A stretch of DNA of 63,171 bases, the filler included, from Basidiobolus ranarum (lineage: Eukaryota), in assembly GCA_040143965.1 (NCBI GenBank). It is 38 parts of 38 records of this genome, joined end to end, with 100 filler letters (N's around TTAATTAATTAA, not from the genome) between each part and the next. Parts side by side here need not be neighbours in the genome. Positions count along the whole stretch, not along the records: positions 58,299 to 59,856 come from JASJQH010004844.1; 37 more parts are not named here. One strand, given 5' to 3'. The notes under the pieces were generated by a model. It saw nothing but the letters and a program-made list of their open reading frames with translations, made no database searches and was not told the DNA's origin. This document shows, one piece after another, positions 21 through 63,171 of the stretch (its first letter is position 1; every line of letters begins with the position of its first letter). A program made the position numbers and the translations under genes.

Positions 21-386
21 CTACCTAATTTCAAAACTAACAATCACACTGAACACACCCTGACAGCTGAGGTGCTGCGTATCAGCCACTCCTATCACCG
101 CGGTGATCATATTGTAGCAACAACTTGCCGCTGCCTCGATAGGAATTACTTTGTTATCTTTCGTATGACAGTGCGAATAAAATAGAGTGGTGATCGAGTC
201 ATTGATCTCTTGATATAGTATAAAGGTGTTCGCGCCAGAGACCTCTTCCTCGGGAATAAAGGCGAGACCACTCTTTCCAATCAGTTCGTCCGGCCAGTAT
301 CCAAGAACTTCATAAACACTATCGGATAAGTATAAGATTTTTCGTTGTGGAGATAGGTCGTAGATTGCGATGAAATTTTTCTCCAT
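21..386 (-). CDS. PAS-domain protein, N-terminal exon (partial)
   Basis: MEKNFIAIYDLSPQRKILYLSDSVYEVLGYWPDELIGKSGLAFI is a typical PAS core (LY.SDSV..VLGY.P.ELIG). The reading probably continues after an intron near the contig edge. Confidence 0.75.
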   Translation of the reverse strand: MEKNFIAIYDLSPQRKILYLSDSVYEVLGYWPDELIGKSGLAFIPEEEVSGANTFILYQEINDSITTLFYSHCHTKDNKVIPIEAAASCCYNMITAVIGVADTQHLSCQGVFSVIVSFEIR

Positions 387-1573
387 GAGCAAGAAGTAAA
401 ACTCGAAAAGCAGATATGAGATTTAATTGCGTAGAAATACTTCTGAATATGAATCAATAGACGATAGATAGAAGAACCCGAGGAAAGATAATGAGCCGAG
501 AGGTGCATAGTATATAAACGAAATACTGATGGAGCGTTGGTACAAAGTGAATTTTCTAGTTGGTGGAACATTCGTTCAATACAATTAATCTCGATCAATT
601 GATGGTCAATTCTGAAATGGAAACAAACGTCACATTAGCTACAAACCAAAAAGAATACTATTTCTTAGGAACGAATAAAGAATCAAAAGCCTAAGCTGCC
701 AGAGAATGGAGCATCTATGGTTTGTCCGCTGCTCCATGACCAAATGAAGTAGAAGAATCATGACTAATGAGCTCACCATGATCGATTAAGCAGTTGATAT
801 ATGCAAAGCAACCGATGAACGCTTCCGTGTTCGAGAGTAACGATTTCGAGTGGAAGCTATTTATGAGAGGTTGACGCCCACATCCAACGGTTTACTTAAA
901 ATGTACATCTGAGCCAGCTGGGATCCGTTCATCAGAAGGCGAATGTAATCTCTTGAATGTTGCGCTTGATCTGATTTGTGCGAATGAAGTGGAAGATGCA
1001 TGAAATCTAGCAAAACACTAAACAATGTCCATTTCTCCCCAAAAAATCGCAAACAAGCCTGCATCTAAGTACGGTCGGTGTGCTAGGTTTGTAGCGGACT
1101 TGAGGCTTCAGATTGCAGAAGGATGGGCATGATGATTGCACAAACCAACTCGGGTCCTAGCAAAGAGAACTTTAATTTTAAGATTTACACAACTCCTTGG
1201 AGTGTGCTGGATGATGGTCGTCCATTGGCCAGCTTGGCACAGAAATCTGCAGCCACCGCCCAAGCTTGGGTAATTGCGTGCAGACAAACAAGAAACACTC
1301 TTTGTACAATAATTCTCGGCTCGGAAATCCCAATCTTGTGGGCATGGGTTGTTCATCCAGCTCGATGTGGAATGCCGTTTTGACCTTCACGAAAGCCTCC
1401 CATCATTCGGCTCTATCATTATGACAGATTGGTCATACCCCCATTGGGCTCCATCCCGATTGCCCTAAATCTGTTGAATGGTATGATGGTTAGTGATTAT
1501 GTCAGACATGCCAGATAAACCGGTCGACATGTGGCCTACCCGATACGTTCAGGATTCCTGAATTAGAGTTGAC

Positions 1574-6690: not shown

Positions 6691-8261
6691 TAAGTGATAT
6701 TTGACTAAATAATGTTGACTAACTAATATGTGATATATGAAATAGTTAGGTGTATAAAGATAGGGATAACATATATGATAAAGACAATAAACTTCAACAT
6801 AGTCCACTTACATCTTGACAAAAATACAAATGTCAACTTTCTGCTCAATAGATTAATAAGTGAAAACCACCAATTTCTCTAATTCCCCAAACCACTTCCT
6901 ACAGGCTCCCAAATACTTTAACAGGTTATGAGGCCCAAGCTTACCCTCTCTGTAATGTCTACTTCTTAAATTTATGGAACTTTTCTGTCTTCTTAAAAAT
7001 TTGACGGAATCAGTTATCAAGTTTGGAAAATTTAAATGAATATGCTGCTGCAAGAAAAAGGATTTTTGGACACTATTGTAGAAGAAGACAATACAAAGTT
7101 ACCTGAAGCCAAGGTTTTACTCCAGGTCCAAAAAGAACAAAGTGCTTTCAACAAAATTTGCCTTAATGTTAAAGAAAAATTGCAAATTCACTGTTCAAGA
7201 GCTAAAACTGCCAAGAAGGTATGGAAAGCCTTGGAAGACACCTACAAACATGTTCTGCTGCCAACATGATGTTTCTAAGAAGACAATTCTTTAACTTAAA
7301 GATGAAGCTAGGAGCAGTCAGCAAGTCACTAAATAATAGAGTAACTATTTAGTGGATGATATGGAATGAACTGCAATACCTACTACTGATCAAGATATCA
7401 TAGTTACAGTCCTGAATAGCTTGCCACATGAGTTTCAGAGCCTAGTATTGGCTCTAGAATCAAGAACTGAAAATTCAACCTTAAATTAAATATTTGGCAT
7501 ACTTCTGGATGAACATTTATGCAAATTGGGATTCAGCCAAAAGAGTGAAGAAAATGCTTTAATAGGCTCTGGGAGACCTTCCTATCAAGGTCAAAAGCAC
7601 TTTAAGAAGAAGAGTAACATATTCTGTGAATGCTGTAAACAAACTGGCCATTTAAGCAAAGATTGCTTTAAAAGAATTGCAAAAGATGAAAAATGTACTG
7701 AATCTGGAAATGTGATTACAACAGAAGAGCACTTGTTCATATCTGCTCTGTCTATTACTACCAACTAGGATTCACATTCTGTGATTACTGTAGAAGAACT
7801 GGCCATTTAAGCAAAGATTGCTTTAAAAGAATTGCAAAACAAGAAAAACATACTGAATCTGGAAATTTGGTCATAACAGAAGAGCATTTGTTCATATCTG
7901 CTCTATCTATTACTGCCAACAAGGATTCTCAGACATTGTATATTGACTCTGGAGCCTCCCAACATCTCACAAATGAAAAATATTGGTTTGTAGATTATGA
8001 AGAAATCCCAATAGAAAGGTTTTTGTGGGAGATAACCACTTATTGGATGCTATTGGAATGGGAATAATTCAAGTCAATTTGAATGGAGATTCTAAATAGA
8101 AAGTGTATACTTTGAAGGATGTACTACATGTTCCAGATATTGCCAACAATTTAATATCTGTATGCAAGGCCACCTTGGAAGGGCTAAAATTCAATTTTGA
8201 TAAGTCAGGGTGCACCATCACTGACCAAAATGGGAGTTTTTTAGCTTTGGGAGAAAAGGAT
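6691..8261 (+). mobile_element. Ty1/copia family A remnant: LTR end, PBS, gag (UBN2, CCHC) and protease
   Basis: LTR ends ...tttaaca at 6923 followed by PBS ggttatgaggccc. Motifs: CECCKQTGHLSKDC, LYIDSGASQHL and LKDVLHVPDIANNLISV. Multiple stops and frameshifts. Confidence 0.9.
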
Positions 8262-10499: not shown

Positions 10500-11325
10500 G
10501 ATGATAAAATATTTTTTTTAAAGTTTTTCCAGTTGACAAATTTTTGGTTTGGAAACTTTTGGAAATAACTCTAAGGTATTAAAAACTTTTTCGTGTAATA
10601 ATATTTTTAAAAAACTTTCTCCAGATGACAAACTTTTGGTTTAGAAAAAAATTATCTCAAGCTGCAACTTTTTGGCTCGGAAATAACTTTTCCAAATTGC
10701 AACTTTAAGGTTGGACAAAACTTTTTCCAGATGACAAACTTTTTGGTTTGACAAAGTTTTGGATTTAAAAAAGTTTAGTTCAGAAAGTTTTAAGTTTGAC
10801 AGAGTTTTGGATTTTAAAAAATTTAGTTCAGAAAAGTTTTAATCTGAGATAAAGTTTTGGTTTACAAAAAAATATTTCAAGACGAAAAAAGTTTTTAGTT
10901 CAGAAAGTTTTAAGTTCGACAAAGTTTTGGATTTAAAAAAGTTTAGTTTAGAAAGTTTTAGTCCGAGATAAAGTTTTTGGTCTACAAAAAAATATTTTAA
11001 AAAATTTTAATCCGGGATAAAGTTTTGGAGTCGAAAAAGTTGGTTTGTCAAAAGTTTTTAAGTTCGACAAAGTTTTGGATTTAAAAAAGTTTGGTTCAGA
11101 AAGTTTTAATCCGAGATAAAGTTTTTGGTCTACAAAAAAATATTTTAAAAAGTTTTAATCCGAGATAAAGTTTTGGATTTAAAAAGTTTAGTTCAGAAAG
11201 TTTTAATCCGAGATACAAGTTTTGGATTTAAAAAAGTTTAGTTCAGAAAAGTTTTAATCCGAGATACAAGTTTTGGATTTAAAAAAGTTTAGTTCAGAAA
11301 AGTTTTAATCTCGACAAAGTTTGGG
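10500..11325. repeat. AT-rich hierarchical tandem repeat (about 50-nt unit built from about 16-nt AAAGTTTT subunits)
   Basis: Unit gataaagttttggatttaaaaaagtttagttcagaaagttttaatccga is near-perfect at 11161-11315 and increasingly degenerate leftward, where the cores read aaactttt. Confidence 0.9.
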
Positions 11326-18508: not shown

Positions 18509-19950
18509 TATTGAAATTAGCATTGCCTAAACACCTATATAGCCATATATAGCTTAGTACTTAGTTATCTTATAATTCACTAATATATTATCAATTATTC
18601 CCAATTGGAATTTACTTAGAATATTTTTACTAACTTAGAAGTTCTCAGATATATAGACTTTTCAAACTTATGCTAGAAGCCCCCAACTGTGCACACATGT
18701 TCCTGGGACCTTCCTTTACACATTCTATATGTTTGTTTGTTTACATCTTGACAAAACTATAAATGTCAACTTTGTACTCAAGTAATCAATATGTGAAAAA
18801 CCACCAATTCCTCTAATTCTTCAAACCACTTCTAACAGGCTCCCAAATACTTTAACAGGCTATGTGCCCCAAGCTTGCACTCTCTGTAATGTCTACTTCT
18901 AAAATTTATGGAACTTTTCCCTCTTCTGAAAAATTGGATGGAGCCAATTATCAAGTTTGTAAAATTGAAATGAACATGCTGCTGCAAGAAAAAGGACTTT
19001 GGGGCACTATTGTAGGAAAAGAAAACAATGCAAAACTATCCAAAACTGAAGTTTCAGGACAAGTTAAAAAGAACAAAGTGCCTTTAAAACAATTTGTCTT
19101 AATCTTAAAGACAAATTGCTAATTCAATGTTCAGGAGCTAAAACTGCCAAGAAGGTATGCAAAGCCTTGGAAGACACCTACCAAACAAGTTCTGCTGCCA
19201 ACAAGATGCTTCTAAGTAGACAATTCTTTAACTTAAAGATGAAGCCAGGAGAAGACACTAAATCACTAATTAATAGAGTCACTATTTTAGTGCATGAAAT
19301 GGAATGCATTGGTGTACCTACCACTGATCAAAATATCATGGTTACAGTCCTGAATAGCCTGCCACACAAGTTTCAGAGCCTAGTATTGGCTCTAGAACCA
19401 AGAACTGAAAATTGACCTTAAATTATGTATTTGGCAGACTTCTGGATGAAGATTTATGCTAATCAGGACTCAACCAAAAGAATGAGGAAAATGCTTTAAT
19501 AGGTTATGGGAAACCTACCTATAAAGATTAAAAGCACTTGGAGAAGAAAAGTAACATATTCTGTGATTACAGTAAAAGAACTGGCAATTTAAGCAAAGAT
19601 TGCTTTACAAGAATTGCAAAAGAAGAAAAACATACTGAATCTGGAAATATGGTCACAACAGAAGAACACTTGTTCATATCTGCTCTATCTATGACTACCA
19701 ACAAGGATTCTCAGATGTGGTATATTGATTCTGAAGCTTCCCAACATTTCAAAAATGAAAAACATTGGTTTGTGGAATATGAAGAAATCCCAATTAGAAA
19801 AGTCTTCATGAGAGATGACCGCACATTGGATGCTATTGAAATGGGAACAATTCAAGTCAATTTAACTGGAGTTTCTGAAGAGAAAGTATATACTTTTAAG
19901 GATGTACTACATGTTCCAGATATTGCCAAGAATTTAATATCTGTATGCAA
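18509..19950 (+). mobile_element. Ty1/copia family A: complete 5' LTR (18509-18857), PBS, gag, protease
   Basis: LTR tattgaaattagc...tttaaca (about 349 nt), PBS ggctatgtgcccc, then KLDGANYQV, SSAANKMLLSRQFFNLKMKPGE and WYIDSEASQH. Confidence 0.9.
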
Positions 19951-20050
19951 NNNNNNNNNNNNNNNNNNNNNNNNNNNNNNNNNNNNNNNNNNNNTTAATT
20001 AATTAANNNNNNNNNNNNNNNNNNNNNNNNNNNNNNNNNNNNNNNNNNNN

Positions 20051-36782: not shown

Positions 36783-37460
36783 CTAAATAGTCATATAAAC
36801 TAATCCTAATAAAGGTCTAAATTTCTCAAATTTCTGTCTAGCTAATGGTTTGGTCAACATATCAGCAATTGTGTCTTCTGTAGAATAATAAGCTAAGTGA
36901 ATAAGCTTACTCTCTACAGTCTCTCTAATGAAGTGATGCTTAATATCTATATGTTTGCTTCTAGTATGAAACATGGGATTTTTAGCTAATTTGATACAAC
37001 TTTGATTATCTTGAAATGTTGTGGTTAGTGAATTTTGAGAATAACCTAAATCTGTTAAGAGTTTTCTTAACCATATCACTTCCTTTGTTGCTTCACAGGC
37101 AGCCATGTATTCTGCCTCTGTTATCAAAAGTGCTACAGTAGGTTGTTTCTTTGAATTTAAACAAATAGCTCCATTACAGAAAGAAATAAGTATCCTGTTG
37201 TAGATCTCCTGTCTTCAATATCTCTTCCCTAATTTGCATCTGAATATCTCATCAGATCAAAGTTTGATCCAGAATATATGTATTTTAAGCACAGATCCAC
37301 AGTATCTTTCAAATATCTGCAAATCCACTTAACTGCTATGATTTGATTAGATCCATAATTTTGAAGATATTGGCACATAGCTCCCACAGAATATGCAATA
37401 TCTGGCCATGTTCCAACCATAATATACATCAAACTACCAACCATAGATTGATAAGGAGAT
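36783..37460 (-). mobile_element. Ty1/copia RT C-terminus, RNase H and polypurine tract
   Basis: MVGSLMYIMVGTWPDIAYSVG, EAEYMAACEATKEVIWLR...DNQSCIKLAKNPMFHTRSKHIDIKHHFIRE...ADMLTKPL; PPT gagggagaggg just downstream. Confidence 0.9.
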
Positions 37461-45020: not shown

Positions 45021-45842
45021 ATCTTTACTGTTTAGTGCATCATGCAAAATTGATATGGATCATAGTTAAATATAGCATAAATCACTTTAGTTAGATAACA
45101 ATCACTTATGTGTTTATGTAACACTGATAGTGTGAAATTGTTGTATATCAAAAAAATCAATGATAGCCTATTAATTCAAGCAATTTCACTACAATCAAAT
45201 GAAAAATATCTGTCAATAAAAAGCTTGCGCAGCCGTATTGGCTTGATATGGCTCAATCCATTCACATTTTCACCCAATTAGAAGCTTACCTGATTGAATT
45301 AATAATTTGCTGATCTAAAAATGATGAATCAAGCAATCCTGATCACTACTATCATATTGCAGATCAATCCATCATCAAGTGCTGTGATTTGTCACTGGTG
45401 TGCCAAAACTACTGGTGCTTCATAATGCAGGAGCTGTTGTGCCCAATTGAAAATCAGGATACTGTGGTAGTGAGGGACAAATGATTGGCCTAAAAACATG
45501 TGAATGTCTTGGTTATACATTTGATTGGGTAAGTTACAGTATAAATAGCTTATTGCTACACATTCAGTAATCCATAAGTTACAAACCAGGGGATGAACTT
45601 ACTTTGTCAGTTACCCAAAATTGTAATTTGGCAATACTAAATCAGGTACTTGGTACAGGCTGGTACAATATCTCCAATATAATCTTTGTGTCTGATTGTG
45701 GTGAGATAGTGCCATATTGTTCCTTATAGTGTCTGATCAAGGGTTAAAGGACCCAGCCATGGTAATTGACAGCTTGTGCCAGATGATGTACTAGCAGGCT
45801 GGATCAAGTGGCACAATCTGACCTGGTCCAATGAAACAAGTC
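45021..45842 (-). mobile_element. ISL2EU-like element terminus and 5' region, inserted at TA into a copia
   Basis: Near-identical to 5240-6063; ends atgaaacaagtc|ta. Confidence 0.7.
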
Positions 45843-45844
45843 TA

Positions 45845-46581
45845 TAGCTCCAGATCTGGTTGAATTACAAAATGTAGTCCCAAAACCATCTTGTTTTTGG
45901 TTAAATTTCTCATATTTTCAGCTCCTAGATGACCCAATCTCCTAAGCCAGATTTTCCAGTCTATCTCTTCAGTGGTGGCAGTATTAACTTGTTCATATAT
46001 TGGCCCAATATAATGAAGTTTATACAAGTTATTTTGCTTAGCTCCAGAAGCTACATAATTCTCTTTTTGATCCCTGATTGTACAGCCATTTTGATAAAAA
46101 TTAAAGCTGTATCCCTCAGATGTAGCTTTACTCACTGATAACAAATATTTTGCTATCCTAGGCACATATAGCACATTTTTCAGTGTCAAATACATGTCCC
46201 CAGAGATGTCCCCAAGATCCACTTCAATATCTCCCACTCCCACAGCTTCTAGTGGCTGGCCATCTTCCATATAAACCTTCTTGTTTATGTCAGTTTTGAG
46301 TGTCTTAAACTAGTTTTTTTGATTATAGAAGTGTCAAGAGGCTCCAGAATCAATGTACCATGACTTAGAGTCTTGTTCAGTGGTCACTGATAGGGCAGAA
46401 ATTAATATAACTTCCTCTTTGAATGAGACCTGATTTGCTTGTTCTGACCTCTCATTTTTGTTGTAATTTCTTGATTTGCAATCTTTTAACTGCTATCTGT
46501 GTTTGTTACAACCAGAGAATAAGCCTGGTTTCCTTCTTTTGTAACCTTTGTACTTGCCAAAGCTACACTTTCCAGCTCCAA
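45845..46581 (-). mobile_element. Ty1/copia (further family) CCHC, protease and GAG-pre-integrase
   Basis: WYIDSGAS at about 46340-46362; LKNVLYVPRIAKYLLSVSK; WLRRLGHLG. Confidence 0.85.
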
Positions 46582-51662: not shown

Positions 51663-53221
51663 ATTTCTATCCTATCCAAGGTCAAGCCTGCACAGGCTGA
51701 GATCCTTACTGACGATGCTCTCAGATTCGTCGCTACTCTTCATCGTACCTTCAACCCTACTCGTTTAGCTCTCCTCAAGCGTCGTGAAGATCGTCAAAGA
51801 GAACTCGATAACGGTGTTCTTCCCGACTTCCTTCCAGAGACTGCTTACATCCGTAATGACCCTAACTGGAGAGCTGCTCGCCCTGCCCCTGGTCTTGAAG
51901 ATCGCCGAGTTGAGATCACTGGTCCAGTTGACAGAAAGATGGTCATCAATGCTTTGAACTCTGGAGCCAAGACCTTCATGGCTGACTTTGAAGACTCCTC
52001 CGCTCCTACTTGGGACACCCTTCTCGATGGTCAAATCAACATGCGTGATGCTCTCCGTCGTACCATCACCTTCACCGCACCCAACGGCAAGTACTATAAG
52101 CTTCGTGATGATGGCAAGATCGCCACCTTACTCGTTCGCCCACGTGGTTGGCACATGGAGGAGAAGCATCTCTTGATCGACGGTCAACCTTGCTCAGCTT
52201 CCATCTTTGATTTCGCTTTGTACTTCTTCCACAATGCTCGTAAGTCTGTTGAGATCGGAGCTGGTCCTTACTTCTATCTTCCCAAGATGGAGTCTCATCT
52301 TGAGGCCAGACTCTGGAACGATGTCTTCAACGCTGCTCAGGATATGCTCTCAGTTCCTCGTGGTACCATCCGCGGTACCGTGTTGATTGAGACTCTTCTT
52401 GCTTCATTCGAGATGGATGAGATCATCTATGAACTTCGTGACCACTCATCTGGGCTCAACTGTGGTCGTTGGGATTACATCTTCTCCTTCATCAAGAAGC
52501 TTCGTCAACACTCCAAGTATGTTCTTCCTGACCGTTCGGATGTCACCATGACCTCGCCATTCATGGATGCCTATGTCCGTTTGTTGATCAAGACTTGCCA
52601 TAAGCGTGGAGTACATGCTATGGGAGGTATGGCCGCCAACATTCCTATCAAGAACAACCCACAGGCCAATGAAGCAGCTATGCAAAAGGTCCGCAACGAC
52701 AAGCTTCGTGAAGTGAAGGCTGGTCACGATGGTACCTGGGTTGCCCACCCTGACCTTGTCAAGATCGCTCTTGGTATCTTCAACGAGCACATGACCACTC
52801 CTAACCAAATCCACCTTCGTCGTGATGATGTCCAAGTGAGTGCTGCTGATCTACTCAACAACAACATCAAAGGTGGTAAGGTCACCGAGACTGGCATCCG
52901 TAACAACATCTCCGTTGGTATTGCTTATACTGAAGCTTGGCTTCGTGGCTTAGGTTGTGTCCCAATCCACAACCTCATGGAGGACGCAGCTACTGCTGAG
53001 ATCTCACGTTCTCAATTGTGGCAATGGGCCAAGCATCAAGTCAAGACTGCTGAAGGCAAACAAGTCACACAACAATGGCTTCTCCAGCTCTTGGATGAGG
53101 AGACCGACTCATTGAAGAAGCAACTCGGCAACAAGTATGCCAGCTACAAGTACGATCTTGCTAAGAAGTACATGGCTGGTCAAGTGTCTGGTAAGGATGA
53201 AGACTATGCTGACTTCTTGAC
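51663..53221 (+). CDS. MLS1: Malate synthase (glyoxylate cycle, type A), nearly complete, both ends truncated
   Basis: One open frame over the whole contig: [76 protein letters not shown] and [19 protein letters not shown]. Confidence 0.97.
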
Positions 53222-53321: not shown

Positions 53322-53537
53322 GGTAACGGTGGGGCTGGCAATGGTGGTGACAATGGCAACGGCGGTAACGGAGCTGGTGCATATGATGCTGGAAAGGGTG
53401 GAAATGGCAACGGTGATGGTAACGGGGGAGCTGGCAATGGCGGTGACAATGGCAACGGCGGTAACGGAACTGGTGCCTATGATGCTGGAAAGGGTGAAAA
53501 TGGTGATAGCAACGGAGAGCAGGACTGCGACAAATAG
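53322..53537 (+). CDS. C-terminus of a Gly/Asn-rich repeat protein (32-aa unit)
   Basis: GNGGAGNGGDNGNGGNGAGAYDAGKGGNGNGD occurs about twice (96-nt unit with mostly third-position changes), then SNGEQDCDK*. Confidence 0.7.
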   Translation, partial: GNGGAGNGGDNGNGGNGAGAYDAGKGGNGNGDGNGGAGNGGDNGNGGNGTGAYDAGKGENGDSNGEQDCDK

Positions 53538-54737
53538 AGACCTCAACTTATTATACTTATATTTATACCGTATTTATTTATGCTCCATGATGTAGATGAT
53601 TTCAAAATGAGTTCGATTAAAATACAAACATATTTAATGATTGATTTCCAGATAAATGGTACGCTTTCAATATTGGAGAATAAGGCAATACATAGAGCTC
53701 CTACTCTCCAATGTAGGATTAAATACCGATTGTTAATTAGATATTGAAAATCGTGGGCCATACAAGGTCAATTCTTACTGCTCTAGTCAGTTGAAATGTA
53801 CTGAAATGGGGCAGCTTCTAATATATAAAACTTAATTACTACCCACTTGATTATCTGAATTGGTAACACTTGTTCATCAAGGGATCGGTCAGGTTTATTA
53901 TTCAAAATTGAGCTTTACCGAAGTTGAAGATTGCTTAAAATACAAGCTGCAGCGGTATCGAGTAAGATCAGATTGTAATTTGCATTGCTGTACCTAATGT
54001 TTACGGATAGTTCGACTAAAGAGTTGTCACCCAAGAGTCTTTAGCTATATTCCATATCAAAGGTGAAAGCCATTCTACTTCATACCAATATCCATATCAT
54101 ACTCGTATAAAAATAACTGACATATCTATCTTTATTCCTAAAGGGTTTGTGAAAGTATTGCATGTAGTATTAGCAATCGAGAGAGATTAGACTGCTTAGA
54201 AGCACTCAGTGCTAAATATGTCAATGAGACTTGCTTTAATACGCAAAAATATTTGTCGTTCCTACAGGATAAAGATAAATTGAATACCCACCTGGTTATA
54301 TATGTCAATAGCAATAAAAGTTTATTAAATCTGAATGCTCATTCCTAAAGTCATAGTGAACTTATTGTGGCCGGTTCCTGAGGTGAGTGCAATTTCGGGA
54401 CTTGATTCACTGATAAATTGACTGATTAACTTTATTTCGATTGTGCTATTTTTATAAGGTTGATTAGGGGAAAATCAAGTGGCATTCCTGCCGGATTTGG
54501 GAGTGTGCTAATTTCAATAATTATTCGTCCAGTAGTTCTGTAGATATATGCATTTCTTTTACTGTTTTGGTTATTGCGAGGCGTGTAGGAGAGGTGTGAA
54601 CATGAAACTGGGTTGAGGTCGAGGTTTGCTTATACACTATATGTGTGCAACTTATTGAGTTGCTTGAGGTATTATGTTGTCTCCGAAATTGACATCGCTT
54701 TTTGTCTGATAATCCAATTTCGTAACAAACTAACCAA

Positions 54738-54809
54738 GGCTCAATGGTCTAGTCGTATGATTCCTCGTTCGGGTCGTGGAGGTCCCGGGTCCAATTCCCG
54801 GTTGAGCCC
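54738..54809 (+). tRNA. tRNA-Pro(CGG), degenerate, possibly a pseudogene
   Basis: Acceptor GGCTCAA/TTGAGCC, anticodon loop TTCGGGT, T stem CCGGG/CCCGG and a downstream T5 Pol III terminator. The D-loop GG and T-loop TTC are altered. Confidence 0.8.
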
Positions 54810-56639: not shown

Positions 56640-58198
56640 ACAAGTGGCTAGAAGGCAAGAGAGTACTTGGGTGTAGACCACAAGACAAGACAGGACTGGA
56701 CAAGGAAGATACTTTGGCAAGAATCTTTATTGATAACTGGTGTTGATCAGACTGAGGTCTGATCAAGGAATAAAAGGGGCTTATATAGATATTGCAAGGT
56801 GAAATATAATATATTGAACAAGGAATATATTGTGGCAAGTTTGAGAGTTGGGGTGTTGGGGACTACAAGGACCAATACAAAGAGCATATGATGTAAGGAT
56901 GATGTAAGGATGATCAGGTGACCTTCAATGGAAGGTCTTGGTGGAAATACACTAGGTGTGGAATGACGTGATTGGTTAGGTTTCATTGAATGTTCTAAAG
57001 AACATGATTTCAATATGAAGTAATCTGGATGAACAGATACTAGATTGCCAAGAAGGGATGGCACAGCAGATATGATGTCATAATCTAATAATAGAGAAGT
57101 TCTATTTATAGTGGATCAGTATGCAGAGATCTGAATCATGAAAGCCCCCATCTCATCATCAAAAACCCTGGCAGAATGCAAGCCACCAATGTAGTGAGGT
57201 AGCAATGCTACCCACTAGCTGGTTGATTTATTTACACTCCAAGCTTGTATCATTACTATTGTGGACACCACACAAAACCCTTTGGATATTGCGGTTATAG
57301 TTACTGCTTACATCTTATATCAACTACACCAATATTACTATAGTTCTTTGACAGTTTTGCAATTCAGAAGGGTGGATCAGATCTGGATCCAATGAATTTT
57401 ATTTTTGTTATGGTAGATAGAACTACCAAACAATAACTTTAAACCAATTGAAGTATATCCTGGATGTACTAAAAAAGTTTAAAATGGAAGAATTTAATCC
57501 CATATTTCCCTCAATGGAGACAAAACTTAACTTGACTAAAAATGGTGCAAATAACATGTTCTATGATTCAAATGAAAGCCAGAAATTTCATTCTCAATCT
57601 ATGGTTAGTAGGCTGAGATATATCATGACTGGAATTCCACCAGACATTGCATATTCTGTGGGAGTTATGTGCCAATGTCTTTGAAATTATTGATCTGATC
57701 AAACCATAACAGTTCAGTGGAATTTCAGATACTTGAAAGATTCTGTGAATCTGAGCTCAAATACACATATTGTGGATCAAACATTGATCAGATGGGATGT
57801 TCAGTTGCTAACTAGGAATGAAATATTGATGGCAGGAGATCAATCACATGCTCATTGAGTCCTTGCTATAATGCAGCTATTGCTTGGAATTCAGAGAAAT
57901 AACCTATGATAGCAATTTGTGTTGAAATTAGCTTTGCCTATACACCTATATAGTCATATACAGATTAGAACTTAGTAATCTTATGATTCACTAAGCTATT
58001 ATCCATATTCTCAATTTGAATTTACTTAGAATATTTTTACCAACTTTGAAGTTCTCATATATTGTCAAAATAAGGAACTGGACAAGGACTGGGAACAATG
58101 ACAAGTGGCTAGAAGGTAAGAGAGTACTTGGGTGTAGACCACAAGACAAGACAGGACTGGACAAGGAAGATACTTTGGCAAGAATCTTTATTGATAAC
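56640..58198 (+). mobile_element. Nested TE mosaic: TGTCA-type LTR (56640-57140, 58063-58198), short LTR-like insert (57190-57341) in a CACTA right end, copia RT remnant (57410-57915), copia A LTR start (about 57920)
   Basis: YILDVLKKFKMEE..PMETKL...SMVSRLRYIMTGIPPDIAYSVG; repeat identities to other contigs. Confidence 0.7.
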
Positions 58199-58298: not shown

Positions 58299-58588
58299 TC
58301 GCCATTGTGGCGCTTCTCAACCGAGGCAACATGTTTTTCGCCATTGTGGCGCTTCTCAACCGAGGCAACATGTTTTTCGCCATTGTGACGCTTCTCGACT
58401 GAAGCAACATGCTGTTGACCATTGTGGCGCTTCTCAACCGAAGCAACATGTTTTTCACCATTATGACGCTTCTCAACTGAGGCAACATGCTGTTGGCCAT
58501 TGTGACGTTTCTCGACTGAAGCGACACTACCTGCCAATGCTAGAGAGGCCAAAGCCAATAATGTAAGACTGATAGAGGTGAAACGCAT
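58299..58588 (-). CDS. Secreted KEX2-processed repeat protein (KEP), N-terminal part: signal peptide plus (HNG[EK/QQ]HVASVEKR)n
   Basis: MRFTSISLTLLALASLALAGSVASVEKR followed by 5 full and 1 partial 13-aa repeats, each ending in KR. TATAAAA lies upstream at about 58732-58738 (minus). Confidence 0.9.
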
Positions 58589-59459
58589 GGTAGAAGATTT
58601 ATTGTTAACGTTAGGAATGTGGTTTAGTAAGGTTGCTTTGGTATTGTCCAGATATTCCTTTTGTTTGAATTTTGTGTGTTAAACTAGAAAGAGAAGATTG
58701 TTCGATCTTTCTATATACATTTCTCGGGTCCTTTTATATGTTCAATGAATTTGCCTTATCCTTGAACCAATTTGATCACTGTATATTATTTCGGAGAATA
58801 TAAAGATCCGTTGAGTGCTCTGCAATCTAATTATCTCCTGAGTGGGAAGCCATAGATGTCGCTTTGCATGTAATTGCATTATTGTATCAAAACTTTTAAT
58901 AGGATGAATTTTCTTGGCCTCAAGCAATGTAATGTACTATATCACCCCGTTACTTTATTTGTGTTGAATTCCCTTCATCTACTGTAGTCCAGCTAGTGTA
59001 CACACGTATAGAAAGTATATGGGCTATGCAAACATAGTCAATTTGACAATAAAACCTTAATTTCAAATATATATATCTCAGAGTGAGAATGCGCATGATT
59101 GAAAAATCAAGACAGGTGGAGAAAGAAGCTTAATACAATTTACAACCAATCATGTGGATAATTCGTATAAACAGGGGTTTGTATATATGGCACAACCATG
59201 CATACCAACTAGAAAGCTACCTACTTGACTAGAATTTTCAATCTGGTTTGTGTTATAAATCAAATATAGTATTGACCGCTTTATTAATCAATAGAGCTTT
59301 ATAATAAATAATTCAATAGCTTTGGCTCTTGGTATAATGAACAATAGTCTCTGTATACATGTTTCTCATTTTTGGCATAAATCGGAAGAATATTGCTAGT
59401 ATTTACCTTCTAATAATTCTATATGATCCTTTAACATGGAGCTCTCAGTAGTGGCATTT

Positions 59460-59856
59460 TTAGACAGTAGAAACATGCTGCTGTCCATTGTGACGCTTCT
59501 CAACTAAAGCAATATGCTGTTGTCCGTTGTGGCGTTTCTCAACCGAGGCAACATGCTTCTCGCCATTGTGACGCTTCTCAACTGAAGCAACATGCTTTTC
59601 GCCATTGTGACGCTTCTCAACCGAGGCAACATGCTTTTCACCATTGTGACGTTTCTCAACCGATGCAACATGTTGTTGTCCGTTGTGGCGCTTCTCAACC
59701 GAGGCAACATGCTTTTCACCATTGTGACGCTTCTCAACTGAGGCAACATGTTGTTGTCCGTTGTGACGCTTCTCAACCGAGGCAACATGTTTTTCGCCAT
59801 TGTGACGCTTTTCTACTGAAGCTACATGTTTTTCGCCATTGTGGCGCTTCTCAACT
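59460..59856 (-). CDS. KEP precursor, C-terminal part of an upstream tandem copy (correct frame missing from ORF track)
   Basis: Manual translation: VEKR, then 8x HNG(EK/QQ)HVASVEKR, HNGQQHIALVEKR and HNGQQHVSTV*. The 39-nt units vary mostly at synonymous sites. Confidence 0.9.
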
Positions 59857-59956: not shown

Positions 59957-61404
59957 CTTTCAGCAACTCCATTTTGTTGTGGTGAATAGGGGGCAGTAGT
60001 TTCTTGCTTAATTCCATAAACTTTGCAAAAGTGCTCAAATAGTGTTGAAGTATATTCTCCACCATTATCAGTATGTGTTTTCTTGATTTTAATTCCAGTT
60101 GCAGTCTCCACAAGTGTTTTAAAATCTTTTAAGATAGAGAAAGCTTCTTCTTTTCTTTCCATAAAGTAGATCCAAGTGTATCTTGTATAATCATCAATAA
60201 ATGTGACTAAATATCTCTTTCCACCTCAAGATATATTTTGCATGGGTCCACACAAATCTGAATGAATTAGATCCAATTGTTTGACAGATTTGATTAAACC
60301 AGAACTCTTGAACAATTGCCTGGCTTGCTTTCCATATATACAACCCTCACAAATTTCCATTTTAGTTGGGAGGTTATTTTGAATCCCAGTAATTAGGCAA
60401 TTTTGATCATTTTGCTCAAATAATCAAATTGAATATGGCCAAATCTCTTACGAGATAATTGAATAGTTTCTTGATTGGAATAACTTATATTTACACATAA
60501 ATTTCTTGGATTATATGTAAGTTTGTATAAGTTTTGATCCTTTTCTCCCAAAGCTAAATAATTCCCATTTTGATCAGTGATGGTGCATCCTGACTTATCA
60601 AAATTGAATTTTAGCCCTTCTGAGGTGGCCTAGCATACAGATATTGAATTCTTGGCAATATCTGGAACATGTAGTTCATCCTTAAAAGTATACACCATCT
60701 CTTCAGAAGATCCAGTTAAACTGACTTGAATTGTTCCCATTCCAATAGCATCCAATGTGTGGTCATCTCCCATGAAAACCTTTGTAATTTGGATATCTTC
60801 ATATTCCACAAACCAATGTTTTTCATTTGTGAAATGTCAGGAAACTCCAGAATCAATATACCATGTCTGAGAATCCTTGTTGGTAGCCATAGATAGAGCA
60901 GATATGAACAAGTGATCTTCTGCTGTAACCACATTTCCAGATTAAGCATGTTTTTCTTCTTTTGCAATTCTTTTAAAGCAATCTTTGCTCACATGGCCAG
61001 TTCTTTTACAGTAATCACAGAATGTGTTACTTTTCTTCTCAAAGTGCTTTTGACCTTTATAGGAAGGTTTTGCATAACCTATTAAAGCATTTTCCTCATT
61101 CTTTTGGTTGAGTCCTGATTTGCATAAATCTTCATCCAGAAGTCTGCCAAATACATAATTTATGGTCAAATTTTCAGTTCTTGATTCTAGAGCCATTACT
61201 AGGCTCTGAAACTTGGGTGGCAGCCTATTCAGGACTGTAACTATGATATCTTGATCAGTGGTAGGTACTCCAATGCATTCCATTTCATCCACTAAAATAG
61301 TGACTCTATTGATTAGTGATTTAATGTCTTCTCCTGGCTTCATCTTTTAGTTAAAGAATTGTCTTCTTAGAAATGTCTTGTTGGCAGCAGAACTTGTTTG
61401 GTAG
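59957..61404 (-). mobile_element. Ty1/copia family A gag, protease and integrase
   Basis: CDYCKRTGHVSKDC, LIHSDLCGPM and TDNGGEYTS...TTAPYSPQQNGVAE. Confidence 0.9.
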
Positions 61405-61677
61405 TGTTGGATAATTAATCTTTATTCAACATCATAGTTAACTTTAGTTATGATACATATATCAGAAACAGAAAGCAACATATCTATAGCCCCTATATTC
61501 TAAATAGGAATATCNNNNNNNNNNNNNNNNNNNNNNNNNNNNNNNNNNNNNNNNNNNNTTAATTAATTAANNNNNNNNNNNNNNNNNNNNNNNNNNNNNN
61601 NNNNNNNNNNNNNNGGGAGGGGGGGGGGAGGAAAACTGCGGGGGGGACGAAGGGGGGAGGAGCGTGGGGCAAGGTTT

Positions 61678-61761
61678 GGAAAAATGACCGAATTGGTAAG
61701 GTGGAGGCCTGCTAAGCTTCGGGACTTATGGTCCCTGAGGGTTCGAGTCCCTCTTTTTCCG
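61678..61761 (+). tRNA. trnS: tRNA-Ser(GCT), mitochondrial type
   Basis: Acceptor GGAAAAA/TTTTTCC, anticodon arm GAGGC-CTGCTAA-GCTTC, long variable arm GGGAC/GTCCC, T arm GAGGG-TTCGAGT-CCCTC, discriminator G. Confidence 0.88.
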
Positions 61762-62806
61762 TCCGTTTACCCCCCCCCGAAAGGGCTTTATAGTTGCCAG
61801 GGGGGCCCCGACCCCGACTGAACTAAACCCCCCCCCCCAGGGGGGGGAAGTACCCTCTCCCGAGGTTTCGCTCGTGGCGAAGAGCCAAAGGATCCCCGGG
61901 CGCCCCCTACCCTCCCCTCTGGGGGGGGGGTTTGCTCGGACCCCCCCCTTCGGTCGCATCTGGGGGCTCCCCCCCCCTATCCCCCTAGGGGAGGGGGGGG
62001 AGACTTCCCGGTTTTCCCCCCCCCCGTTTGGCCCCCCTGTTTCGCCTCCCGCCCCCCTTTTTTCAGGGGCTTCGGCAGGTGCGAAGGGGGGGGATTTTTA
62101 TACTCTGGAAGGGGCCGGGTGGTGCCGCGCGCCCCCCCCCCCCCCCCCCCCCCCCGCGCGGGGCCCGGCGGGGGGGGGGCCCCCGGGGGGCGGCACCCGC
62201 CCCCCCCGGGGGGGGGTAGGATGGGGGCCCCCCCGATCCCTTCCTCCCCCCTCCCCGGTTCGGGGGGGAAACACAAGGGGGGGAAGCACTGCATGGGGGG
62301 GCTCCCATCCGGCTACGCACGGAGGGGGGGGGAGCTGAGGAGGGGGGGAAGGGGAAGCACAGGGGGGAGTGGCCAAAATGGGGGGGGGGTTTGGGTGGGG
62401 CCTACGGGGCAATTAAATTCCCCCCCCCTCCAAAGGGGGGGGGGCGGGGGGTCGGTATAAATCCCCCCCCCCGTCCCGGGGGGGGGGGGTGGGGGGGGGG
62501 GGGGGGCCGGCCCCCCCGGCCCCCCCCCCCGCGCCCCTCCCCCCCCCCCCCCCCGGGGGCGTCCTACGCCCCCCCCCCCCCCGGGGGGGGGGAAGTACAG
62601 CCCTGTGGATTGGCCGGTTTCCCATTAGCGGGTGGCCATCCTCCCCGGTCCCCTCGTTTTAATAGCCCCCCCCTCCGTAGCCCCCTCTGTCCGAAACAGG
62701 GGGGGGGGCAACGGGGGATGGGGGGGGGGCAATAGGGGGGCCCGTTCGGGAGTGTGGGCCCCTCCCTCAGTATAGGGAGGGGCCATTGGAGGGGGGGGGA
62801 ACTCAA

Positions 62807-62880
62807 GCACCTTTAGCTTAATAGGATAGAGCGTCGGTCTTCGAAACCGTAGGTTGCCCGTTCAAATCGGGCAGGGTGCT
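62807..62880 (+). tRNA. trnR: tRNA-Arg(TCG), mitochondrial type
   Basis: Acceptor GCACCTT/AGGGTGC, D arm GCTT..GAGC, anticodon loop CTTCGAA in stem CGGT/ACCG, T arm GCCCG-TTCAAAT-CGGGC. Confidence 0.85.
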
Positions 62881-63171
62881 GAACATTCCCCTCCCTCGGG
62901 GGAGCCTTTGTACGATCGGGCCGACCCCCCCTATCCAGGGGGGGGCCTTTCCAAATTATCCAATCTCCTTTCCATTATCGCTCAGGGGGGGACAAATCTG
63001 GGGCCTCCCCAACACGACCAAAGCGGGGGGGGGGAGATGATGAGTTTACGGGTGCCCCCACTTGGTAGGGAGAGGGAAACCTCCCCCCCCCTGTTTTATA
63101 CTGGCTGCATTGAACCAATGGGGCGAAGCACAGGGGAATAAAATAATGGGCGAAGCACGGAGGCCCCCCGC

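Follow-up and report, generated by a model that had tools for sequence, protein, structure and literature searches.

The fungal precursors known as KEPs are recognized by a signal peptide together with internal repeats that are separated by Kex2 sites (Le Marquer et al. 2019, PMC6339444). A later survey, which required at least three repeats of 8–100 residues, lists 7,878 KEPs in 1,345 of 1,461 strains; Basidiobolus meristosporus has the highest number of all 1,461 strains, with 43 KEPs, many of them duplicated, and among 30 of these 43 several are near-consecutive in accession number (Umemura 2020, PMC7329392). The KEP peptides that have been characterized act as mating factors, virulence factors and mutualism modulators. 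Those detected by Vogt et al. 2022 were linear and minimally modified, with roles in biotic interactions suggested, and six Coprinopsis kep knockouts showed no axenic phenotype (PMC9769878). Precursors of the KEP kind are common in fungi, and in the locus described here it is the peptide that appears to be new. Thousands of members of the class are predicted, functions are known for few of them, and this locus adds one more orphan peptide.

The locus lies in a 63,171-nucleotide stretch of DNA from Basidiobolus ranarum (GCA_040143965.1), hereafter the window, which consists of 38 unplaced contigs of ≈1.56 kb each with N spacers between them. Positions 58299–59856 are exactly one whole contig (JASJQH010004844.1; 1,558 bp), bounded by N spacers. 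Because the window is made of separate unplaced contigs, nothing outside these positions is physically linked to the precursor pieces. Read along its minus strand, the contig carries the 3' end of one gene (piece B), a spacer, then the 5' end of another (piece A), and no further gene. Its features are the following.

59460..59856, minus strand: piece B, a precursor gene truncated at its 5' end by the contig edge, with a partial VEKR, nine full units, a terminal 10-mer and a stop
59493..59843, minus strand: nine full 39-bp units of piece B, in the order EK EK QQ EK QQ EK EK EK QQ
59460..59492, minus strand: terminal peptide HNGQQHVSTV and TAA stop
58589..59459, no strand assigned: 871-bp spacer, 32.7% GC, comprising the 3' region of B and the promoter of A
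59280..59285, minus strand: AATAAA, putative polyadenylation signal, ≈175 nt downstream of the piece B stop
58731..58738, minus strand: TATAAAAG, putative TATA-box-like element, 150 nt upstream of the piece A ATG
58532..58588, minus strand: signal-peptide-like residues 1–19 of piece A, with Arg2, a hydrophobic core and Ala-Leu-Ala before Gly20
58505..58531, minus strand: pro-piece GSVASVEKR of piece A
58310..58504, minus strand: five full 39-bp units of piece A, in the order QQ EK QQ EK EK
58299..58309, minus strand: start of a sixth unit (HNG) of piece A, cut by the contig edge

The frame of piece B reads from 59855 to 59460 on the minus strand, with the TAA stop at 59462–59460, and piece A runs from an ATG at 58588 to the contig end at 58299 on the same strand. 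Both genes are incomplete on the contig, so the numbers of units per gene are lower bounds. Tandem Repeats Finder recovers the 39-bp period in both pieces, and the 871-bp spacer between them has no match elsewhere within the window. A preliminary description of this contig had proposed tandem precursor genes, and the arrangement bears this out, since the 3' end of one gene is linked to the 5' end of the next by 871 bp unique in the window. Given that unmatched spacer, the simple reading of the stop-spacer-start junction is that there are at least two tandem genes. Pieces A and B are best explained by an intronless KEP gene repeated in tandem, either as two copies or as part of an array, and they may be halves of near-identical genes in such an array.

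To assign the precursor to a class, we applied the published sequence criteria for KEPs: a signal peptide with no later transmembrane segment; at least three similar repeats of 8–100 residues that together make up at least 15% of the protein; and KR, RR, KK or RK as accepted Kex2 sites between repeats. The signal peptide of piece A, assigned by hand, reaches a peak Kyte-Doolittle hydropathy of 2.62 (9-residue mean), and an alternative cut after Ala23 is possible. Downstream of it, the sequence is hydrophilic throughout with no transmembrane segment. Piece A agrees with all of the published criteria, as expected from the earlier proposal that a signal peptide followed by KR-delimited repeats represents KEP architecture; the repeats number five full units in A and nine plus the terminal one in B, and the signal peptide is judged on piece A only, the N terminus of B being missing. 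The HNGxxH precursor thus appears, from its sequence, to belong to the KEP class, and its peptide is apparently undescribed. Like KEPs, it features compact, near-identical units behind a signal peptide, KR between the units, two peptide subtypes per precursor and duplicated genes. It differs from known KEPs in the His at the start of the unit, the invariant Asn-Gly and second His, the lack of any aromatic residue and the lack of a sequence homologue in our searches.

The preliminary description reported a signal peptide followed by at least 16 copies of a 13-residue unit ending in KR. Sixteen HNG starts and 16 KR sites are present, but only 14 of the units are complete, KR-ended and 13 residues long. 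These comprise nine copies of HNGEKHVASVE, four of HNGQQHVASVE and one of HNGQQHIALVE, and are accompanied by the terminal HNGQQHVSTV and one fragment. The two variants are indeed mixed, as had been stated, with EK at positions 4–5 in nine cores, QQ in six and no hybrids. His1, Asn2 and Gly3 are constant in all 16 visible starts and His6 in all 15 complete cores, so that the reported invariance of the H-x-G-x-x-H spacing holds for 15 of 15. A His/Glu/His triad was also considered as the conserved site and rejected because 6 of the 15 cores have Gln in place of Glu4. The exchange of EK for QQ is charge-neutral, both main peptides having a computed charge of −1.06 at pH 7. Phe, Trp, Tyr and Cys are absent from all four peptides, which have GRAVY values of −0.6 to −1.1 and a beta moment of ≈0.5. 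Their computed monoisotopic masses are 1205.579 (HNGEKHVASVE), 1204.558 (HNGQQHVASVE), 1244.626 (HNGQQHIALVE) and 1105.526 (HNGQQHVSTV).

Most of the variation among units is silent, in line with the earlier claim. At the DNA level, 13 of the 14 units show a difference, and third codon positions hold 42 of the 54 minority letters. In the coding frame, these amount to 16 synonymous and four amino-acid-changing alleles; in the other five frames, the corresponding counts are 2 and 18, 2 and 18, 5 and 15, 12 and 8, and 1 and 19, and four of those five frames contain stops. Compared pairwise, all units together give pS 0.52 and pN 0.04 (pN/pS ≈0.08), the nine EK units pS 0.46 and pN 0, and the four QQ-VASVE units pS 0.54 and pN 0, figures that describe a pattern rather than a formal test since the unit pairs are non-independent. 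The 14 units contain no stops or frameshifts. The repeat units are under purifying selection in the coding frame, and the synonymous bias, which is strongest in that frame, rules out a non-coding repeat, chance or another frame. The KR dipeptide itself ends all 14 full units as well as the pro-piece, with synonymous change in both of its codons.

The unit can be divided into two parts that behave differently. The pro-piece reuses VASVE-KR without the HNGxxH core: over its final 21 nt it agrees with the corresponding ends of the units at 15–19 of 21 positions, whereas the 18 nt preceding these match the unit majority at only 4 of 18. At the other end of the array, the piece B stop replaces the Glu codon directly ahead of the former KR codons. 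Because the core is invariant, VASVE-KR is reused as the pro-piece and the stop falls at that Glu, HNGxxH is probably the working part. This suggests that HNGxxH is the active core and that VASVE-KR is probably in the main a Kex2 recognition linker. Variation in the follower is confined to the last two units of piece B, the last full one of which reads IALVE, and totals four changes; these are few and confined to the array edge, a place where drift would be expected in any case, and the contrast between core and follower is accordingly suggestive only.

We searched for relatives of the precursor in protein collections, metagenomes and the literature. The peptide had not been recognized as a described one, and it was not found in the protein collections, the metagenomes or the relevant print. 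A word-indexed protein search with piece A gave no relative among 7,999 scored candidates of 169–2,000 residues or 5,461 scored candidates of 52–168 residues, and exact protein look-up returned no match for any of three query sequences, all of them fragments, which makes this result uninformative. Using phmmer against 1.84 billion representatives, we obtained 30 matches at E ≤ 0.001, none with the HNGxxH unit and most of them unrelated repeats of similar period. Neither piece came close to a curated Pfam cut-off, PDB sequences gave one chance match (E 0.4), and the best ESM Atlas score was 0.87 for both pieces, which we treat as leads only. A back-translation scan of metagenomes yielded 49 pattern matches, none of which was confirmed. 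A looser two-unit DNA pattern found at least 117 stretches; among those listed, none repeats the HNGxxH core with a VASVE-like follower, and 6 of the 117 listed (L016, L045, L064, L080, L085 and L108) have at least three KR-HNG in one frame. The collection searched for homologues included B. meristosporus proteins; low-complexity repeats make difficult queries, and protein searches miss genes that lack annotation, so absence here is not proof of uniqueness.

The published record gave a similar result. Peptide motif searches of print returned no relevant paper, the single match being a bacterial dataset, and the motifs are absent from the supplements of the published KEP catalogues, in which the Umemura rows are accessions without sequences and the Le Marquer files do not include Basidiobolus. 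A literature search for Basidiobolus together with Kex2 returned nothing beyond Umemura's own paper (PMC7329392). Three look-alike proteins recovered from the representatives, P0008 (Rhypophila decipiens, KAK4206798.1), P0010 and P0026, consist, like the present precursor, of KR-delimited repeats. P0008 and P0026 share its period of 13 residues and carry Asn-Gly (or Asp-Gly) at positions 2–3, and the units of P0010 start with His-Asn, but none of the three has the HNGxxH core, and their 37–40% identity derives from the period and KR. Their units begin with Tyr-Asn-Gly, His-Asn-Pro or Met-Asn/Asp-Gly. The Asn at position 2 that is common to all three may reflect query selection only, and we regard them, on sequence, as search-selected analogues rather than evident relatives.

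Established fungal biology suggests how such a precursor would be handled. The signal peptide would be removed, Kex2 would cut after each KR in the Golgi, Kex1 would then trim the KR, and many copies of the linear peptide H-N-G-(E-K or Q-Q)-H-V-A-S-V-E would be secreted per precursor. By this analogy, processing by Kex2 and Kex1 to secreted linear 11-mers is likely. The residue that follows each Kex2 site argues against it to some degree, as P1' is His in these units, whereas acidic or small residues are over-represented at P1', P2' and P4' of processed Kex2 sites; in addition, one-third of candidate Kex2 substrates were left uncut in vitro, and structure can hide sites (PMC2515848). Conservation points to HNGxxH as the working part of the released peptide, in which a tight Asn-Gly turn would probably bring His1 and His6 together. 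An Asn-Gly turn is a strong hairpin former.

As for function, our best guess is that the secreted linear peptides may be extracellular ligands in a biotic interaction, either in self-signaling or directed at gut microbes or at the host, because this is the role of most characterized linear KEP peptides. We hold this tentatively, as close to an even call. The reading frame ends almost exactly at a peptide boundary, which counts in favor of this explanation as a whole, and the lack of aromatic residues and Cys counts against it. STE13 dipeptides, which are taken to suggest hormone-like KEPs (PMC6339444), do not follow KR here, where the units begin with His-Asn, and this speaks against a hormone-like KEP. 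Ascomycete MF-alpha precursors share the pre-pro layout, KR sites and many copies of short linear peptides, but we rejected an alpha-pheromone precursor given that there is no STE13 XA or XP after KR, no Trp or Cys and no match to the Pfam families MF_alpha or MF_alpha_N up to E 1; the MF_alpha cluster in the ESM Atlas scores merely 0.79. Rep1 of Ustilago maydis likewise consists of Kex2-cut repeats without the STE13 signature (PMC6339444). Its peptides form amphipathic amyloid fibrils (PMC3133707), whereas the present ones are hydrophilic with a low beta moment, and membership in the Rep1-type repellents was rejected as the peptides are not amphipathic. A peptide starting with His1 very probably binds Cu(II) or Zn(II) in the test tube, and if the peptides are ligands, metal binding would be incidental or would merely shape the ligand. 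The probability left after the ligand and the chelator and beta-sheet readings considered below covers roles that we have not named.

If metal binding were instead the purpose, the peptides would be ribosomal chelators in which the amine and imidazole of a Kex2-unmasked His1, with His6 across the Asn-Gly turn, form a three-nitrogen set that scavenges, buffers or detoxifies Cu(II), Zn(II) or Ni(II) near the hypha or in the amphibian gut; by analogy with known sites this is conceivable, and we judge it unlikely. Its more specific form, a protease-unmasked metallophore in which the Kex2-released, histidine-brace-like HNGxxH hexapeptide core captures or buffers copper or zinc in the amphibian gut, we judge distinctly unlikely; here the chelating site would be masked in the precursor and become active only once cleavage releases His1. 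His1 and His6 are both invariant, the hydrophilic, non-aromatic and near-neutral peptides suit a soluble chelator, and the spacing of the two His arises in just 1.5% of 200,000 shuffles of the unit residues, a figure for a motif that was picked post hoc. Glu4, however, is not a required ligand, being Gln in 6 of 15 cores, and an ATCUN site has its His at position 3 whereas the peptide has it at position 1, so no such site is formed. No transporter or receptor is encoded on the 1.56-kb contig, the spacer contains none of five zinc- or copper-responsive promoter motifs (a weak negative, as these may not operate in Basidiobolus), and a flexible 11-mer may lose out to host or bacterial chelators. 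Basidiobolus lives in amphibian guts and occasionally infects people, and metal competition matters in both settings. Its siderophore genes are expanded and its siderophore activity is measurable (PMC7466969). The preliminary description likened the motif to those of ZIP transporters, and the H-x-G-x-x-H spacing around a Gly-containing turn is indeed common to the peptide and to part of the segment of Candida albicans Zrt1 that binds zinc (core CHFHAGVEHC; PMC8773511), but the resemblance ends there: the Zrt1 core has three His and two Cys, whereas the peptide has only two His and lacks Cys, it is predicted to be released rather than to extend a transporter, and common descent is unsupported. 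In the histidine brace of the lytic enzymes called LPMOs, a second His joins the amine and imidazole that an N-terminal His contributes, and the site depends on precise processing of the N terminus (PMC13763027). The brace offers a closer chemical analogy than Zrt1, one that would extend to the donor set only, namely the N-terminal His (if processed) and the second His. Unlike LPMOs, these 11-residue peptides lack a folded scaffold and an aromatic second sphere and have no Pfam or PDB sequence match, and Kex2, not signal peptidase, would free His1. Mass production, put forward earlier in support of a metallophore, does not favor one, because alpha-pheromone precursors reach up to 16 copies (PMC6339444). 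A narrow literature search found no secreted ribosomal fungal peptide metallophore, and the word "metal" is absent from the searched passages of PMC6339444, PMC7329392 and PMC9769878. Chelation would, if true, be a KEP function unmentioned in those passages, and a form of fungal metal capture needing neither an NRPS nor a folded zincophore.

Beta-sheet material, a second alternative to a ligand, would result if only the first KR were cut or cutting were partial, giving an antiparallel meander with an Asn-Gly turn every 13 residues and rows of His on one face, or if the released peptides stacked as surface fibrils like Rep1. Single-sequence AlphaFold2 predicts piece B to be all-beta with Asn-Gly turns (mean pLDDT 89.6, pTM 0.80; five models ranging from 80.9 to 89.6 pLDDT), and the stop-free antisense frame, a non-coding control of equal period, reaches only 59.6 at best and 27.8 at worst, a far lower confidence that indicates that the piece B value is sequence-specific. 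This confident fold of the uncut repeat speaks against the ligand reading, and a folded context can also block Kex2 (PMC2515848). Both faces of the predicted strands are hydrophilic, however (mean hydropathy −1.3 and −1.7), so the predicted sheet has no core, and the mature peptides have a GRAVY of about −1.0 and a beta moment of ≈0.5. The antisense control was also modeled as a beta repeat, and AlphaFold2 has modeled random perfect repeats as beta-solenoids in 32 of 78 cases, with high confidence in many of these (PMC11795689). Foldseek gave no match at E ≤ 0.001, and the fold search matches were only generic sheets, namely barrel walls and OspA at 3–10% identity (best Z 12.0, rmsd 3.2, 128 aligned); fold searches that return no specific family do not show a new fold. 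We judge a beta-sheet material quite improbable. A modified dikaritin-type RiPP precursor, with its core excised and cyclized, would have the same precursor layout and an invariant core with a follower, and ustiloxin-type precursors likewise lack STE13 sites, but the conserved Tyr of that group is essential for cyclization (PMC6339444) and the present core has no Tyr or other aromatic residue. Moreover, a DUF3328 gene is nearby in 0 of 185 Zoopagomycota KEPs (PMC7329392, Table 1). We rejected dikaritin membership for lack of the Tyr and consider a modified precursor of this type very improbable. The remaining alternative is an assembly artefact or dead repeat, in which one gene was mis-joined as a false tandem or a pseudogene is decaying. 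At either end, the contig breaks off within the same repeated word, and the fourth and fifth units of piece A are identical and one base from the second of piece B, so that the contig may be one collapsed array period; yet the ends overlap inexactly (the last 23 nt equal bases 2–24 of the other end, followed by a mismatch), the spacer is unique in the window, and the intact units with their low pN/pS do not resemble decay. A collapsed array would still imply two or more tandem genes, and we regard this alternative as extremely improbable.

The other contigs of the window contain a variety of unlinked sequences. Positions 51663–53221 (plus strand) are filled by an intronless malate synthase fragment (51663–53219) with 96% and 92% identity to two B. 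meristosporus proteins (next best 76%), on a contig of 49% GC against ≈36% in most contigs. Through its presence in the same window, this fragment points to Basidiobolus, an early-diverging fungus, as the probable host of the precursor. The 3' end of a Gly/Asn-rich repeat protein with a 96-bp period, a YDAGKG element and a short acidic tail with one Cys lies at 53322–53540 (plus strand), and its contig also carries a tRNA-Pro(CGG) at 54738–54809. Two further tRNAs, tRNA-Ser(GCT) at 61677–61764 and tRNA-Arg(TCG) at 62806–62881, lie on the contig at 61615–63171, which has 69% GC and runs of G and C unlike the rest and is possibly organellar, a contaminant or of poor quality. These three tRNAs are the only Rfam matches in the window, and none is on the precursor contig. 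The contig at 56640–58198 has the same ≈100-bp direct repeat at both ends with decayed retroelement-like frames between, resembling an LTR or a collapsed tandem unit. At 59957–61514 and on many other contigs (e.g., 7702–8067, 19532–20002, 36783–37214 and 45842–46309) are what we take to be broken Ty1/copia gag-pol-like fragments, with motifs that presumably correspond to zinc knuckle, protease, integrase and RNase H. An open frame at 21–422 (minus strand) resembles what we assume to be a PAS-domain exon, and positions 10609–11310 form an AT-rich, satellite-like array with nested periods of ≈17, 49 and 148 bp.
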